Assembly: GCA_035574195.1 (NCBI GenBank)
Contig: DATLZE010000109.1
Span: 19,238 to 83,237, forward strand
Reading direction: 5' to 3'
DNA length: 64,000 nt
Origin: Burkholderiales bacterium
Lineage (GTDB): Bacteria > Pseudomonadota > Gammaproteobacteria > Burkholderiales > SG8-41
Shown in pieces: positions 8,232-55,052 of this stretch. Under the pieces are notes generated by a model. It did no database searches. It had not been told where the DNA came from and worked only from the letters and a program-made list of their open reading frames with translations. Within the stretch, counting starts at the first letter, position 1; each line of letters starts with the position of its first letter. A program made the position numbers and the translations under genes.

Positions 8232-8393
8232 CCGGAGAACACGGAGCCCCGGAACGACATGCGAGACGCGGGATACGAGATAAAACCGCGATCTTCTATC
8301 GCGTCCCGGCTACCTCGCATTTCGATCCGTGCGTCCCGTATCGCGTATCCCGGATCACGGATTCGGTTTCTCTGCGAACTCCGTGTTCTCCGA
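8232..8393. repeat. structured intergenic palindrome built from 7-nt units (CGTATCN type)
   Basis: Outer arms CCGGAGAACACGGAG (8232-8246) and CTCCGTGTTCTCCG (8379-8392) are 14/15 complementary. Inner arms share CATGCGAG..CGGGATACG with their reverse complement. The right arm reads as phased heptamers TCGCATT TCGATCC GTGCGTC CCGTATC GCGTATC CCGGATC ACGGATT CGGTTTC (8315-8370). Confidence 0.6.
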
Positions 8394-8820: not shown

Positions 8821-8952
8821 CGAATTTCCTTTTCAATCGGACTGCAAGCCTCTCAATGGTACTACACGGCTCCGCGACCTCATGCCCGTATCGCATTGTG
8901 AACGGAAATCCGAAAATAAAGCTCCGGACCGCGGCTCTTGCCGCGCCCCGCG

Positions 8953-9001
8953 CCTCTCGTTCATCATTCGCCATTCGCCGCTCATCATTCCGTTCATCGC
9001 C
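8953..9001. repeat. phased heptamer tract (TTCNNCN) abutting the lactonase start codon
   Basis: CCTCTCG TTCATCA TTCGCCA TTCGCCG CTCATCA TTCCGTT CATCGCC ends 3 nt before ATG 9005. TCATCATTC occurs twice and CATTCGCC occurs in tandem. Confidence 0.45.
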
Positions 9002-14301: not shown

Positions 14302-15225
14302 TCAGCCGCGATAGATCGGATCGGGCCGGCTGAAGAACGAGTGCAGGACATGGTAAACCATCAGGTAATTGATCTGCTGGAAGCTCGCGTGCGAGATGCC
14401 GGGCATCACGGTGAATTGCTTGTCCGGGTTGGGCAGGCGCCGGAAGAATTCGAGCAGATCCTCGAGCGAGGCGATGCCGTCGTACTGGCCGCGCATGATG
14501 AGCGTCGGCGCCACGATCTTCTCCGGGTCCACGACCGGCAGCCTGGCGCACATGTCCACGTAGGTGCCGGTCGGCACCGAATCGTCGAGCGCGAGGACCG
14601 CGTCGGCGAAGGCCTCGATCACCCGCTCCTCGGCACAGCCGGGATGGTCGCGGTTGAAAATGCTGTGCACGAAGGCGCGGTCAATCGGGCGGCGGTTCCT
14701 CGCGCTGAACTCCGGCAGCCTCTTGCGCCGCTCGGCGAGCGTCGGGCTGCCCTCGCCGGTCCAGACAAAGGCGTCGAGCGCGAGCCGTTTCACCCGCTCA
14801 GGATGGCGGCTCGCGAAGAGCGCGGCGCGCAGCGCCCCGGAGGAAATGCCGTAGAGCAGGAACTCGCGCGTGCCGCGCGCCTTCGTGATGTAGTCGGTGG
14901 CGGCGGCGAGATCATCGGCTCCGTTCGCGATGTCGCAGTTGATGTCGCGCTTCTTGTCCGAGCGCCCGTAACCTTCCATGTCCACGCACCAGGTGTCGAA
15001 GCCCTGCTCGCAGAAATAGTCCATCACCGAGGAGTACGGCCGCCCCGGCACCTGGAGGTCGAAGGTGGGCTGGGAGGCCATCGAGGAGCCGTGCACGAAG
15101 AGGATCGTCCCCGCCGGCCCTCGCGGTGCGATCGCGCGCTTCTCCCACAGGAAGAGGCGCACCTCGCCCTTGTTCGTCCAGTGTTCCTGCCCGGTGATGC
15201 GCGCGCCGGATAGCCGTTGCTCCAC
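14302..15225 (-). CDS. alpha/beta-fold hydrolase
   Basis: C-terminal part of ORF 14302..16380. Nucleophile elbow GISSGA; HGSS oxyanion region (ILFVHGSS). No ATG; GTG at 15225 (VEQRLSGARITGQEHW...) has AGAGG upstream. The start is uncertain. Confidence 0.7.
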   Translation of the reverse strand: MEQRLSGARITGQEHWTNKGEVRLFLWEKRAIAPRGPAGTILFVHGSSMASQPTFDLQVPGRPYSSVMDYFCEQGFDTWCVDMEGYGRSDKKRDINCDIANGADDLAAATDYITKARGTREFLLYGISSGALRAALFASRHPERVKRLALDAFVWTGEGSPTLAERRKRLPEFSARNRRPIDRAFVHSIFNRDHPGCAEERVIEAFADAVLALDDSVPTGTYVDMCARLPVVDPEKIVAPTLIMRGQYDGIASLEDLLEFFRRLPNPDKQFTVMPGISHASFQQINYLMVYHVLHSFFSRPDPIYRG

Positions 15226-16583: not shown

Positions 16584-17639
16584 CTAATAGATCGGCTTCG
16601 GCCGCAGGTAGCGGTCGCGGTCCATGGACTTGACCGTCACTTTCTCCACGCGGTTGCCGCGCAGGACCTCGAGCTGAACCTCCACGCCCGCCTCGCCCTG
16701 GCGCCACAGCCTCTGGTAGAAATCGGCCTGGCCCTTGATCGGCTGGCCGCCGATGCCGACGATCACGTCGCCCACGCGGATCGCGGCCTCGTCGGCCGGC
16801 CCCTCGGGCGAGACCCGCGTCACGATCAGGTTGCCCTGTACTTCCTGGGTGTTGACGCCGAGCCAAGGACGCGGGCGCGGGGAGGAGCGGCCGGTCGCGA
16901 GCAGATCGCCGAGCACGGGCTTGAGCAAGTCGATCGGCACGAACATGTTGCCGGGGATCTGCGCGCGCGTGCCGGTGGCATCCCCCACCACCAGAGAGCC
17001 GATGCCGAGGAGCTTGCCCCCGCGGTCGAGCAGCGCGGCGCCGCTCCAGTTGACGGTGGCCGGCGCCGTATAGATCGCCTCCTCGAGCAGGTACTCCCAG
17101 TAGCCGACGAAGGGACGGCGCGAAACCACGTAGGCGGGCGCCACCCCGTCGAATCCCACGATCAGCACCAGCTCGCGCTCGGCCACAGCCGAGGACCGGC
17201 CGAACTGGATCGGTTTCACCGGCAGCGGGCGCAGTGCGCGCAGCAGTCCGAAGCCAGTGGCGTTGTCGTGAGCGATCACGGTGGCGGGGAAAACCCGTCC
17301 GTCGGCGGTGGACAGCTCGACGGTCTCCGCCTCCAGGATCAGGTAGCCGATGGTGAGCACCAGCCCCTCGGAGTCGATCACCACGCCGCTGCCCTCGCGC
17401 TGGTTGCCGAGAGTGATGGAGGTGCGCGCGTTCGCCACCGCCTTGCTGCGGACCTTCACCACCGAGAGCGCGTCGACAGTGAGCTCCTGGCGCATGCGCG
17501 CCGCCGGAGGAGAAGGTTGCTGCGCCTGCTGCGCCCCGGCAGCCGTGCACAGCACGAGCCCCAGCGCCGCCGCGAGCCCCGCCGCAGCGCCGCGCCCGCC
17601 GACCAGGCGGCGCCCCTGCGCCTGCAAACACTGCGTCAT
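16584..17639 (-). CDS. HtrA/S1C-like trypsin-fold protein with C-terminal PDZ domain (non-canonical triad)
   Basis: ORF 16584..18431 trimmed to ATG 17639 (MTQCLQAQGRR..., signal-like). GSGVVIDSEGLVLTIGYLI aligns by eye with GSGxIIxxxGYILTNxHVV, and NWSGAALLD with GNSGGALVN. PDZ-like GVNTQEVQGNLIVTRVSPEGPADEAAIRVGDVIVGIGG. Confidence 0.7.
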   Translation of the reverse strand: MTQCLQAQGRRLVGGRGAAAGLAAALGLVLCTAAGAQQAQQPSPPAARMRQELTVDALSVVKVRSKAVANARTSITLGNQREGSGVVIDSEGLVLTIGYLILEAETVELSTADGRVFPATVIAHDNATGFGLLRALRPLPVKPIQFGRSSAVAERELVLIVGFDGVAPAYVVSRRPFVGYWEYLLEEAIYTAPATVNWSGAALLDRGGKLLGIGSLVVGDATGTRAQIPGNMFVPIDLLKPVLGDLLATGRSSPRPRPWLGVNTQEVQGNLIVTRVSPEGPADEAAIRVGDVIVGIGGQPIKGQADFYQRLWRQGEAGVEVQLEVLRGNRVEKVTVKSMDRDRYLRPKPIY

Positions 17640-17756
17640 GCCGTCATTCCTCGCTGGCAATGCCTTCGCCGTATCGTATTCCCAATCCCGGGATTTGATA
17701 ATAGCCGGCCGCGCACGCGTTAAAATCGCCACCATCAAAGGGGAGATCGAGCATCC

Positions 17757-19574: not shown

Positions 19575-19650
<76 letters not shown>

Positions 19651-40524: not shown

Positions 40525-42060
40525 TCAGGCGCTGCGCTGCGCGAAGTCGTGCAGCCGGAAGCCGAGCAGCCGCAACGCGAGAAAATAGACCGCGGCACCC
40601 AGCACGACCAAGCCGGCGAGGCGCGCCGCGCGCTCGCCCGCTCCCATCGCGAGCCAGCTCGCATCGCTTCCCGAGGCGAACCAGAGCACCGCGCCCATGA
40701 CGCAGAGCGCGGCGAACAATTTCGCGAGGAACGCCGGCCAGCCCGGCTGGGGCGCATAGATGCCGCGGCGGCGCAGCGCGCGCAGCAGCAGCGCCGCGTT
40801 CGCGCAGGCGCCGAGCCCGATCGCGAGCGCAAGCCCCGCGTGCCTGAGCGGCCAGACGAAGGCGAGGTTCATGAGCTGGGTCAGAGCGAGCGTCACGAGC
40901 GCGATCCTGACCGGCGTGCGGATGTCCTGGCGCGCGTAGAAGCCGGGCGCGAGCACCTTGACCATGATCAGCCCGATCAGCCCCGCGCTGTAGGCGATGA
41001 CCGCGCTGCGCGTAGCATGGACATCGGCGGCGGAAAATGCCCCGTAGTGGAAGAGCGTCGCGACGAGCGGAACGGCGAGCAGCGCCAGGGCCGCGGCGGC
41101 GGGGGCGGCAAGAAGCAGCGTCATCCGCAGCCCCCAGTCGAGCAGCTCCGAGTAGCGCTGCGCGGCCTCCTGCGCGTGGTGCCGGGCGAGGCTCGGCAAC
41201 AGGATGGTGCCGAGCGCCGCTCCCAGCATGCCGGCCGGAAATTCCATGAGGCGGTCGGCGTAATAGAGCCAGGAGACGCTGCCCGTCACGAGGAAGGAGG
41301 CGAAGATCACGTTGACGAGAAGGCTCACCTGGCTGATCGAGACTCCGAATACGGCCGGCCCCATCTGCCGCAAAACGCGCCATACGCCCTCGTTCCCGAG
41401 ATCGAGCCGCGGCCGCGGCAGCAGCCCGATGCGCGCGAGATGCGGGAGCTGGAAAGCGAGCTGCAGGACGCCGCCCGCGAACACCGCCCAGGCGAGCGCC
41501 GTGACCGGAGGGTCGAAGTAGGGCGCTCCCCACAGCGCGAAGCCGATGAACGAGAGGTTGAGCAGCGCGGGGGTCGCCGCCGGCACCGAGAAGCGGCCGT
41601 AGGTGTTGAGGATGCCCCCGGCGAGCGCGGTGAGCGAGATGAACAGGATGTAGGGAAAGGTGATCCTCAGCAGCTCGACCGTCAGCTCGAACTTGCCCGG
41701 CGCCGCGGTGAAGCCCGGGGCGCTCACGGCGACGATGACGGGCGCCGCGGCGATCCCGATCGCTGTCACCAGGGCCAGAGCGAGCGCGAGCGCGGCGGCG
41801 ACATGATCCACCAGCAGCCGCGTTTCGCGCTCGCCGCGGCGGCTCTTGTATTCGGCGAGGATCGGCACGAACGCCTGCGAGAAGGCGCCCTCGGCGAAGA
41901 GCCTGCGCAGCAGGTTCGGGATCTTGAAGGCGACGAAAAAAGCGTCGGTCGCGAGCCCCGCGCCGAAGACGCGGGCGATGACGAGATCCCGGATGAAGCC
42001 GAGCACGCGCGAGACGAGCGTCATCGCGCTCACCGTCGCGAGCGCTTTCAGCAGATTCAT
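40525..42060 (-). CDS. murJ: lipid II flippase MurJ
   Basis: 511 aa. [35 protein letters not shown]...[27 protein letters not shown], polytopic membrane protein. Confidence 0.93.
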
Positions 42061-42099
42061 CGCGCGCGGCCCCCGTGGCTCGGTGCCCGTGGGCCGGGC

Positions 42100-42243
42100 T
42101 CAGGGTTGCGCGTTCCGCGCTCCAAGTTTCGCGCTCGAGTTCGAGATCCAGGGCTCGAGGTTCGAGGCGATCCGCTGTCCGAGCCTTCGACCTTGAACGC
42201 CGAACACTCGACCCGCAACCTTGAACCTCGAACTTCGAACCTG
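42100..42243. repeat. heptamer-built imperfect palindrome (GAACCTN family), copy 1
   Basis: Right half is nine phased heptamers GAGCCTT CGACCTT GAACGCC GAACACT CGACCCG CAACCTT GAACCTC GAACTTC GAACCTG (42181-42243). The left half carries the reverse-complement units (GAGTTCG, AGGTTCG). CAGGGTTGCG (42101-42110) pairs with CGCAACCTTG (42214-42223). Homologous to 53899-54004. Confidence 0.7.
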
Positions 42244-42249
42244 TATCAT
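42221..42249 (+). promoter_or_regulatory. candidate sigma70 promoter of rpsT embedded in the heptamer array
   Basis: TTGAAC (42221-42226), 17 nt, TATCAT (42244-42249), 40 nt upstream of ATG 42289. Confidence 0.35.
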
Positions 42250-42288: not shown

Positions 42289-42552
42289 ATGGCCAACATC
42301 GCATCAGCGAGAAAGCGTGCGCGCCAGGCGGAGAAGCGGCGCCGACACAACGCCGCGCTGCGTTCCAAGTTGCGCAGCGCCGTGAGAAGCGTGAGAAGGG
42401 CGATCGCGGCCGGAGACAAGGGTGCCGCGCGCGCCGTGTTCCAGCGCGCCAGCGCCGTGATCGACTCGATCGCCGACAAGAACATCATCCACAAAAATAC
42501 CGCGGCGCGCTACAAGAGCCGGCTCGCCGCGCAACTGAAGGCCATGCCCTGA
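42289..42552 (+). CDS. rpsT: 30S ribosomal protein S20
   Basis: Tail of ORF 40549..42552 from ATG 42289: [33 protein letters not shown]...[19 protein letters not shown], 87 aa. Confidence 0.93.
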
Positions 42553-53259: not shown

Positions 53260-53889
53260 GTGGCTGCCATGACATCCCGTGACGACCTTCGCGAGCGGAT
53301 CGTGGACGCCGCGCTCGAGCTCGGAGAGCGGACCTCGTGGGAAGCGGTGCGGCTGCACGACGTGGCGGACACGCTCGGCATCACCCTGGATGACGTGCGC
53401 CACTGCTTCCGCGAAAAAGAAGACCTGGTGGACGCCTGGTTCGACCGGGCGGACGCCGCGATGCTCCGGATGGCTGAAGCGCCCGGATTCGCGCAGCTCG
53501 CGCCGCGCGAGCGCCTGCAGCGGCTGATGATGACCTGGCTCGAAACGCTCGCGCCGCACCGCAAGGTGACGCGCCAGATGATCCTCGGCAAGCTCGAGCC
53601 CGGGCACATTCACATCCTCTTTCCCGGCATCCTGCGCGTCTCCCGCACCGTGCAATGGATGCGGGAGGCCGCTCACCGCGACGCCACCTACTTGCGACGG
53701 GCGCTCGAGGAGACCGGGCTCACTACGATCTACCTGATGACCTTCTTCTACTGGATGAACGACGACACGCCTGGCGCCTCGGCCACGAGCCGCTTTCTCG
53801 AGGGCTGGCTCGCGGCCGCCGAGCGGCTCGATCGCGCGGTCTACGGCGCGCCGCGCGGCGAGCAAACGGCGGCAAGAGGCCGGGCCTGA
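53260..53889 (+). CDS. TetR/AcrR-family transcriptional regulator
   Basis: 209 aa (GTG 53260, or ATG 53269). N-terminal HTH RERIVDAALELGERTSWEAVRLHDVADTLGITLDDVRHCF. Confidence 0.75.
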   Translation: MAAMTSRDDLRERIVDAALELGERTSWEAVRLHDVADTLGITLDDVRHCFREKEDLVDAWFDRADAAMLRMAEAPGFAQLAPRERLQRLMMTWLETLAPHRKVTRQMILGKLEPGHIHILFPGILRVSRTVQWMREAAHRDATYLRRALEETGLTTIYLMTFFYWMNDDTPGASATSRFLEGWLAAAERLDRAVYGAPRGEQTAARGRA

Positions 53890-53898
53890 GCCGCTGCC

Positions 53899-54004
53899 CC
53901 AGGTTCGATTTCCAGGCTCGATGCGCGGAACCTCGTAACGCCGTCCTCGGACCTCGAGCTCTGAACCCGGAGCTTTGAACGCCGAGCCTCGAACCCGGAA
54001 ATTT
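53899..54004. repeat. heptamer-built imperfect palindrome (GAACCTN family), copy 2
   Basis: GTTCGATTTCCAGGCTCGATG (53903-) matches GTTCGAGATCCAGGGCTCGAGG (42139-) at about 18/23. It is followed by eleven phased heptamers GAACCTC GTAACGC CGTCCTC GGACCTC GAGCTCT GAACCCG GAGCTTT GAACGCC GAGCCTC GAACCCG GAAATTT (53928-54004) that run into TTG start 54003. Confidence 0.7.
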
Positions 54005-55048
54005 GGACACGATCACCCACGCCCTGAGCGGAGCGCTCGCCGCGCGGGCGGCCGCCCCGGCGCGCGCGGCGCAGGAGGCGCTGAGCCCCCGTGCCCGGAT
54101 CGCGGCGGGATTCGCCGCGGCCGCCTTCCCCGACGCCGATTTCGCGCTGCGCCTCGCCGACACCCTCACCTATCTCAACTGGCATCAAGGGCCCACGCAT
54201 TCCCTCGTGCTGCTGCCGCTCTGGGCCTGGCTGCTCGCGCATCTCTTCGCCCGGATCGGGCGCCGCCGCCACGCCTGGCGCGCCTTCTATCCCCCGGCCC
54301 TGCTCGGGATCGCGGCCCACATCGCGGGCGACCTGCTCACCGCTTACGGCACGATGCTCTTCGCGCCGCTCTCGGAGCGGCGCTACTCGCTGCCGATCGC
54401 GTTCGCGCTGGACCCCTACTTCACCGCCATCCTCGCGGCCGGCTTCGCACTCGCGCTCGCCCGCCCGCAGAGCCGCGCGCCCGCGCTCGTCGCGCTCGCG
54501 GTTCTGGGAAGCTACCTCGGGTTGCAGGCAGCGCTTCATCAGCGCGCGCTGCGGGTCGCAGCCGAATACGCCGCGACCCTCGGCCCGGACCGCGCCGAGA
54601 CATACGCGCTCGCCCAGCCGCTCACGCCCTTCAACTGGAAGCTCATCGTCGCGCGCGGCGAGGATTATCACGAGGCGCACGTCAATTTGTGGCGCACCCG
54701 CTCCCTCCCCGCCCCCGGGCCCGGGGACGGGATGCTGCGCCGGATCGCAGCGGGTTACCAGCCGGTGACGGCGGCGCACTGGAGGCGCCACCGCCGCTTC
54801 GGAGACGAGCCTTCCGCGGCCGCCCTCGCGCGCGCGGCGTGGAACGACGACGCTTTTGCGGATTTCCGCCGCTTCGCGGCGTTCCCGGTGCTCCACCGCG
54901 TGGAGACCGCGGAAGGGCGCGTGTGCGTGCGGTTCGTGGACCTGCGTTTCACGCTGCCGGGGCTCGCGCCCTCGTTCCAGTTCGGGCTGTGCCGCGGCGC
55001 GGCCGAGGGCTGGCGCCTGGAGCGCGTGCGCGGCTCGTTCTGGATAGA

Positions 55049-55052
<4 letters not shown>
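54003..55052 (+). CDS. membrane-bound metal-dependent hydrolase (YdjM/DUF457-like)
   Basis: 349 aa. TTG is the only in-frame start after an upstream stop. MDTITHALSGALAA N-terminus, HQGPTHS and IAGDLLT blocks, several TM segments. Confidence 0.7.

Follow-up and report, generated by a model that had tools for sequence, protein, structure and literature searches.

What kind of sequence element fills the spacer between the divergent genes murJ and rpsT in an uncultured lineage of the Burkholderiales, and what, if anything, does it do there? The window analysed (the whole stretch of 64,000 nt; GC content of 68%) contains murJ, the lipid II flippase gene, as a 511-aa ORF on the minus strand (40525..42060) and rpsT, which codes for the 87-aa ribosomal protein S20 (PF01649), on the plus strand (42289..42552); the orthologues of the former were called PF03023 MurJ, and the window protein shared 80-92% identity with those of its relatives (designated by L numbers in the following). 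The intervening spacer comprises 228 nt, most of which is occupied by the repeat feature. Beside the murJ start lies a GC-rich, weakly 7-periodic stretch (42061..42138; lag-7 autocorrelation of 29/49) that includes the outer left stem (42097-42113), the partner of 42211-42227 in inverted repeat I4 (82% complementary). It is followed by the best-kept units of the left arm, GTTCGAG ATCCAGG GCTCGAG GTTCGAG (42139..42166, plus strand; GTTCNNN type, as read in the sequence), which the inverted repeats I1, I2, I5, I7 and I10 pair with the right arm. The centre or loop, GCGATCCGCTG (42167..42177), was identical at 11/11 positions in the spacer of L082 in a gapped alignment, and GCGATCCGC is also present in the spacer of L086. 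The right arm consists of nine phased NNNGAAC-type heptamers (42181..42243, plus strand; detected by period-7 tandem repeat search, shuffles and a phased-GAAC scan), the last of which form part of a promoter-like site of rpsT, TTGAAC-17-TATCAT (42221..42249, plus strand; consensus scan).

The nine consecutive 7-nt units that the first-pass annotation had listed at 42181-42243 were read in the sequence exactly as described; Tandem Repeats Finder (TRF) placed 7.6 copies of a 7-nt period at 42190-42242 (64% matches). A comparison of the 7-nt autocorrelation with shuffled controls, proposed as a check at that stage, gave a lag-7 score of 32/49 for the feature versus 18.6±2.3 in dinucleotide shuffles of the murJ–rpsT spacer (n=5000). 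This score is the maximum of the 64-kb window, the 99.9th percentile of which is 28; in the spacer, lags 14 and 21 were elevated too, the remaining lags not. Phased GAAC-N3-GAAC-N3-GAAC triplets (one mismatch at most) occurred four times in the 64-kb window compared with 0.22 expected. High-GC intergenic DNA does yield many weak periodic signals, and several lag-7 windows of 19-22 of 35 fall within genes, as would suit a chance low-complexity patch in which the individual loci have no common origin. The probability of this explanation is nevertheless close to nil: it is already refuted by the shuffles, none of which (0/5000) reached a score of 32, and by the orthologous arrays in L082, L212 and L216 (see below); in addition, all four phased GAAC triplets are confined to two loci, 42216-42240 and 53963-53994.

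The latter belongs to a second array (53903..54004, plus strand; TRF period 14) in the spacer between a COQ9/TetR_C-like gene (53260-53889) and ydjM (54003-55052). It has a short left arm of GTTC type, GTTCGAT TTCCAGG CTCGATG (53903-53923), and a right part of about 11 phased GAACCTC-type units (53928-54004), for which the autocorrelation reached 32/49 at lag 14 (0/5000 shuffles) and was elevated at lag 7 with P=0.0012; an eroded counterpart is present in the COQ9/TetR_C-like–ydjM spacer of L086. The region 53899-54004 had been annotated as a homologous copy of the first locus. It is indeed a real second phased array of the same layout, but colinear homology to the first is absent: BLAST of one locus against the other yielded just unit matches of 11-15 nt (E>1), and with the two loci as queries against the window plus 1.4 Mb of related loci, nothing past words of 11-17 nt was returned. 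Likewise, the core sequence proposed as a repeated motif does not hold up as such; its 20 nt do not recur in the window, where the only other match contains three mismatches, and the second-locus version fails an ungapped match. Because both colinear similarity and a recurring core are missing, the two loci have the unit type in common, not demonstrable descent from one element; the BLAST result led to the rejection of the idea that both are copies of a single element. Together with two weak arrays, the 64-kb window thus contains two clear and two weak heptamer arrays. The weak ones are situated in neighbouring spacers (8315-8376 and 8950-9000) and, with lag-7 values of 22 and 24 of 35, rank near the top of the window; one is composed of CGTATCG CGTATCC CGGATCA CGGATTC, the other of TTCATCA TTCGCCA TTCGCCG CTCATCA units, and the TTCATCA-type array stops just short of an ATG at ~9005.

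The left half of the murJ–rpsT feature carries GTTC-type units that are the reverse complement of those in the right half, as is evident from the sequence and from the inverted repeats: CAGGGTTGCG at 42101-42110 pairs with CGCAACCTTG at 42214-42223 as had been claimed (nine Watson-Crick pairs and one G·T), and several inverted-repeat pairs with 71-92% complementarity join the two halves. The description as a long imperfect palindrome is weaker than claimed with regard to the whole fold, which hardly beats that of shuffled sequences (z −0.9 when folded as DNA, with 31/200 shuffles as good; z −2.0 as RNA, with 7/200 shuffles as good). When the Rfam 15 covariance models were applied at gathering score, the feature was unmatched and the 64-kb window yielded a tRNA gene (19578-19650, minus strand) as the sole match; no family was found among 12 clean array examples either. 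The resemblance of GTTCGAN to the tRNA T-loop was considered and rejected: GTTCCAR units are unlike a T-loop, and a tRNA-like fold is absent.

Conservation of the element in the murJ–rpsT spacer of related genomes had been named beforehand among the points that could speak for or against it. The relatives comprised the murJ loci of species-representative genomes as well as contigs with an S20 protein 84-95% identical to that of the window; according to their MurJ identities they form three clades, {window, L082, L086}, {L212-L217} and {L090, L002, L005}, with ~76-81% identity between clades. The same kind of element was found in their murJ–rpsT spacers in varied states of preservation. In L212, 12 GTTCNNN units, a 33-nt centre and 5 NNNGAAC units ending exactly at TATCAT are present (DNA fold z −4.1); L002 contains a near-perfect hairpin, (GTTCCAR)5 – short loop – (YTGGAAC)4, with an RNA fold z of −6.5; L216 and L217 are of intermediate preservation (z −1.5). 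The spacer of L082, whose MurJ is 92% identical to that of the window, holds a colinear copy eroded to the same degree (z −0.3), and in L086 the array is nearly erased. In L090, L003, L004, L005, L008, L018 and others the array is absent, the genes being separated by just a short promoter-bearing spacer. Since the same spacer holds the element in such varied states and has lost or lacks it in other genomes, the element is a long-standing yet dispensable occupant of the murJ–rpsT spacer. In L002 the array precedes a −35 box, TTGCAA, that is intact, while the sister genome L090 is without array; this points to at least one independent gain. The L002 contig is labelled 'uncultured Streptomycetaceae bacterium', and its MurJ is 80% identical to the betaproteobacterial MurJ of the window; this label is probably a binning or labelling error.

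When the window spacer was aligned with that of L082 with gaps allowed, exactly two gaps of 7 nt each were needed, one per arm: L082 possesses one additional unit in the left arm (region of 42139..42166), the window one additional unit in the right arm. The identity of the two spacers was 0.79 over the aligned positions (arms 0.73-0.75 ungapped), compared with 0.78 at the fourfold-degenerate sites of murJ (n=322) and 0.73 at those of rpsT. In this one close pairwise comparison, the arms thus appear to diverge at the rate of silent sites, and because they do so, the hairpin would seem not to be maintained. Direct evidence for a change of single units comes from L212-L215, four population variants that are 99.7% identical over ~20 kb: the sole internal indel among them is one extra CGTGAAA unit in L214 (argF–argG spacer, L212:12588), i.e. 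unit-wise slippage in a relative. Slippage presumably generated the murJ–rpsT array itself as well.

These data bear upon the proposal that the feature acts as a nucleic-acid structure, either as a DNA cruciform or as an RNA hairpin (in the murJ 5' UTR, or as a bidirectional terminator or stabiliser). The strong folds of the fresh members in L002 and L212 are in line with such a role, as are at least 53 metagenome contigs (see below) that fold with the array paired, often into near-perfect long hairpins; furthermore, a palindrome transcribed from either strand gives the same hairpin, and many arrays in the relatives begin a few nt past a stop codon. At the murJ–rpsT locus, however, the structure is not maintained, because the window fold is not clearly above shuffles and that of its closest relative, L082, is not above them at all (z −0.3 to −2 for both). 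The arms are too imperfect and too widely separated for cruciform extrusion, a terminator would have no role where the array lies, ahead of the predicted start of rpsT and between genes that diverge, and neither the window nor the 12 clean examples matched an Rfam family. A functional cruciform or RNA structure, as considered in the first-pass annotation, is accordingly a very doubtful explanation.

Hardly more probable is a mobile hairpin of REP/REPIN or MITE type, copied by a transposase such as RAYT, according to which the 42.1-kb and 53.9-kb loci would represent two insertions. REPs are near-identical palindromes of 20-40 nt that occur as families and are moved by RAYT transposases. Elements of the REP/REPIN/BIME kind resemble the feature in being intergenic and hairpin-forming with their halves in fixed relative orientation, REPs often being found at the 3' ends of genes; the fixed polarity of the arrays indeed recalls REPIN doublets. 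The presence of two loci within 64 kb that have the GTTC-left/GAAC-right layout and a similar stretch of ~20 nt in common would be understandable on this basis, and the clean hairpin of L002 beside its absence from the related L090 constitutes a presence/absence pattern. Against this, the loci are similar only at unit-sized words, the core is unique in the window, and near-identical full-length copies were not found in the window or in 1.4 Mb of related loci; instead, the heptamer loci differ from one another in unit, in unit number and in length, with no full-length sequence conserved among them, and neighbouring spacers of the relatives carry unrelated units. The orthologues vary by unit-sized indels and unit number, not by fixed-length presence/absence, and terminal inverted repeats with target duplications were not seen between L002 and L090, a pair too diverged for insertion boundaries to be drawn with certainty.

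The −35-like TTGAAC (42221-42226) at a distance of 17 nt from TATCAT (42244-42249), which the first-pass annotation had pointed out, proved to be the sole sigma-70-like match in the region (one site in the consensus scan versus 0.0 in shuffles). The suggestion that the last units double as promoter material was supported, since these units overlap the −35 box and the promoter spacer of rpsT, and twelve related genomes have this promoter at an equivalent position. When the 12 related spacers were anchored on the −10 hexamer (TATCAT or TAAGAT), a −35 box was situated exactly 17 nt upstream of it in 12/12. The box reads TTGAAC in the window, L082, L212 and L216, all four of which bear the array, and TTGAGC in L086; it reads TTGCAA, TTGCTA, TTGCCA or TTGCGG where the array stops short, i.e. 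in the array-less genomes and L002. Because the −35 and −10 elements keep their fixed 17-nt spacing in array-bearing and array-less genomes alike, the predicted rpsT promoter appears to be ancestral, and the right arm would have grown into or out of it; the unit CCTTGAA is one base off the ancestral CCTTGCA. The segment CGCAACCTTGAAC, which holds the −35 box, is identical at 13/13 positions between the window and L082; this identity would fit selection that acts on nothing but the promoter. The promoter is presumably used by rpsT, and the left half may have a role in the murJ promoter or 5' UTR. The array-less L003, L004 and L018 contain GGAAC in the rpsT promoter spacer and CCTTGC at −35; it is a speculative thought that these represent the seed or the relic of the NNNGAAC/CCTTGAA units.

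The position of the feature within a divergent promoter region, its overlap with the rpsT −35 box and spacer, the repetition of the GAAC core at exact 7-nt phase and the persistence of the element in the murJ–rpsT spacer of at least two MurJ clades might also be taken for the marks of a phased heptad operator acting on the two divergent promoters, those of murJ and rpsT. The comparison drawn earlier was with the ToxR-bound TTTTGAT heptads upstream of ctxAB, which are direct heptamer repeats beside a promoter. Such an operator is very unlikely in the present case: the arms diverge at the synonymous rate, neither unit sequence nor unit number is conserved at the orthologous promoters, and the array is missing altogether from several relatives in which gene pair and promoter are the same. 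In contrast to the ToxR heptads, the window array gives no hint of sequence constraint and has no known cognate regulator, it has an inverted arm, and arrays of its kind occur at non-promoter spacers, filling spacers of all gene orientations including convergent 3' ends; moreover, a 7-nt period places consecutive sites on different faces of the helix. The alphaproteobacterial LexA box, GTTC-N7-GTTC, was also considered and rejected, the spacing here being N3.

The relatives provide a view of the repeats beyond this one spacer. Based on the gene calls supplied with their loci, the intergenic lag-7 autocorrelation of L212 and L216 amounted to 12.1 and 11.3 matches per 35, respectively, versus 9.0 in coding sequence, other lags being mostly ~8-9 (up to 10.4 in L216); 22% (L212) and 13% (L216) of the intergenic windows exceeded the 99.9th percentile of the coding windows. 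Arrays were present in 8/13 spacers of L212 (cut-off lag-7 of at least 22 of 35), all of them between called genes and with units that vary by spacer (GTAAGTC, CGTGAAN, GGTCACG, CACTCAC and others). In the relatives, arrays sit between tandem, convergent and divergent genes alike; those of L212 and L216 are often palindromic too, e.g. (CGTGAAN)n…(NTTCACG)n. In L086 and L090, which have the 68% GC of the window, the lag-7 excess is weaker or absent. The feature had been characterised as a dispersed intergenic element; this is correct in that it belongs to a repeat class dispersed among the spacers between genes, as represented by the arrays in the window and in the spacers of L212 and L216. With 64 kb of its own genome examined, the genome-wide abundance of arrays in the source organism is extrapolated from these relatives. 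A second family was observed in L212 and L216, (CGTGAAN)n…(NTTCACG)n or (GGTGAMN)n…(GGNTCAC)n, with a fixed polarity of its own (4/4; loci include L212:12584-12672, 14510-14595 and 17602-17740 as well as L216:12569-12720); it has 'TTC' in the right arm, the reverse of the GTTC family.

The polarity 5' GTTC / 3' GAAC holds for every member at the window locus and its orthologues, and the GTTC-left/GAAC-right layout is common to the two window loci and to L002, L082, L212 and L216. When JGI metagenome contigs were scanned for (GTTCSAR)3, at least 127 arrays on at least 120 contigs were retrieved; among the matches listed, contig GC ranged from 0.32 to 0.70 and perfect runs extended up to 13 units. 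For the 101 listed arrays with 200-nt flanks (L092-L211), a reverse-complement partner was located within 200 nt downstream in 26 cases and upstream in one, the corresponding counts of the control motifs being 0-5. As for a more general polarity ('G-rich arm 5' of loop'), only three non-GTTC pairs passed the filter, one of them with opposite orientation. Several further arrays were encountered in the course of these searches. GTTCSAR arrays are often nested in arrays of unrelated heptamers (e.g. L117, L129, L132, L166, L171), and L187, a metagenome contig of 6.9 kb, contains two GTTCCAA-type hairpin arrays ~4 kb apart that flank a block of short genes. A Sulfuricella MAG (L010:2259-2404) harbours the palindrome (GGTGAGS)n – loop – (SCTCACC)n (RNA fold z −4.4), followed by GGGCGCTTTTTT in a context terminator-like in appearance, and Orbus sasakiae (L078:17820-17954; GC 0.38) a perfect (AGCAGGC) array of ~19 units with a lag-7 value of 49/49.

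With respect to known repeat kinds, heptamers are reported to be the most over-represented class of long simple-sequence repeats (LSSRs) in the genomes of many bacteria, the LSSR-richest of which include Burkholderia, Xanthomonas and cyanobacteria, and a contact of ~7 nt with the polymerase, favouring slippage, was proposed as the cause of the heptamer excess (Mrázek 2007, as related in PMC4679880 and PMC4692102). The likeness to the heptameric LSSRs as outlined in these accounts is close: the feature consists of tandem 7-nt units, the unit number changes between close relatives, the repeats would, to judge by the relatives, occupy many sites per genome, and the location is intergenic (both window arrays fill spacers, and the excess in L212 and L216 is confined to spacers). 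The window array differs from clean LSSRs by its strong degeneracy (64% TRF matches), and neither the GTTCNNN unit nor this uncultured Burkholderiales lineage is known to have been described among the LSSRs; a literature search for the literal arrays did not find them. In Xanthomonas, ~185 GGGAATC arrays per genome were reported, 89-93% of them intergenic and including 70-75 convergent inverted pairs with stem-loop potential; in related species, the arrays occur between the same genes with differing lengths (Rehm et al. 2015, PMC4692102). The Xanthomonas GGGAATC and Nostoc GGGGA(C/T)T repeats of that study are, like the present ones, dispersed and intergenic with a conserved core of 4-5 nt and a variable remainder, and the Xanthomonas-type pairs share with the feature the convergent inverted arrays and the occupation of the same spacers at different lengths. 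Their units carry G-tracts, however, and were studied as G-quadruplex formers, whereas GTTCNNN/NNNGAAC units are without G3 tracts; no promoter overlap was reported in that study (PMC4692102), in contrast to the window array with its overlap with the predicted rpsT promoter. Further heptanucleotide examples are the STRRs of Calothrix PCC 7601 and the TAACTGA repeats of Beggiatoaceae, which are tandem and mostly intergenic like the feature and were found at hundreds of sites per genome; the TAACTGA repeats are nearly all direct (one inverted set of 170) and lie just upstream of start codons (PMC4679880), whereas the window arrays are inverted pairs built from another unit. Hence the initial statement that this is not a named element applies to the unit, but not to the kind, which both sources describe as heptameric LSSRs/STRRs, inverted pairs in Xanthomonas included (PMC4692102, PMC4679880).

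Taken as a whole, the feature is quite probably an eroded intergenic palindrome of heptanucleotide simple-sequence repeats, 5'-(GTTCNNN)n–loop–(NNNGAAC)n-3', that was resized by slippage and is neutral except for its promoter units. Strand slippage in replication would let such arrays grow and shrink by one 7-nt unit at a time, and, 7 not being divisible by 3, they would be tolerated only between genes; in this way, heptamer arrays may have colonised many spacers of the uncultured Burkholderiales lineage. The murJ–rpsT array would be old and vertically inherited. It would no longer be homogenised and would accrue substitutions at the neutral rate, on account of which its hairpin would be almost gone. 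The promoter-proximal units would overlie the ancestral rpsT promoter, whose −35 box and spacer they would now form; they are likely the only part under selection, and the array would seem to be without any function besides them. Two observations are left unexplained by plain slippage: the palindromic arrays with their fixed polarity (26/101 downstream versus one upstream among the matches listed), and the recurrence of the GTTC/GAAC core over the entire GC range of the listed contigs. It is rather unlikely, but deserves mention, that the GTTCNNN/NNNGAAC hairpins constitute a distinct, very widespread family whose polarity is imposed by a sequence-specific process. Candidate causes would be selection for a bidirectional RNA hairpin, TTGAAC boxes of −35 type that face outward and give rise to promoters in either direction (rpsT being one instance), or an enzyme by which the inverted arm is produced or copied.

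Heptamer simple-sequence repeats have been known since 1990 and 2007; new here are the GTTCNNN unit and its occurrence in an uncultured Burkholderiales lineage, the kind itself being known. For the window analysed, the consequence is little: promoter units aside, the feature is most plausibly regarded as the neutral debris of an intergenic repeat. It nevertheless offers a small concrete case of a simple-sequence repeat merging with the predicted promoter of an essential gene. In the uncultured Burkholderiales lineage, according to the data of the relatives, most short spacers are filled by heptamer arrays, and the fresh polymorphic arrays beside eroded ones in one lineage represent a natural series for array birth and decay. 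Heptamer hairpins with a GTTC core and fixed polarity are common in environmental contigs; both this polarity and the reappearance of the core in genomes that are otherwise so dissimilar merit a proper census.
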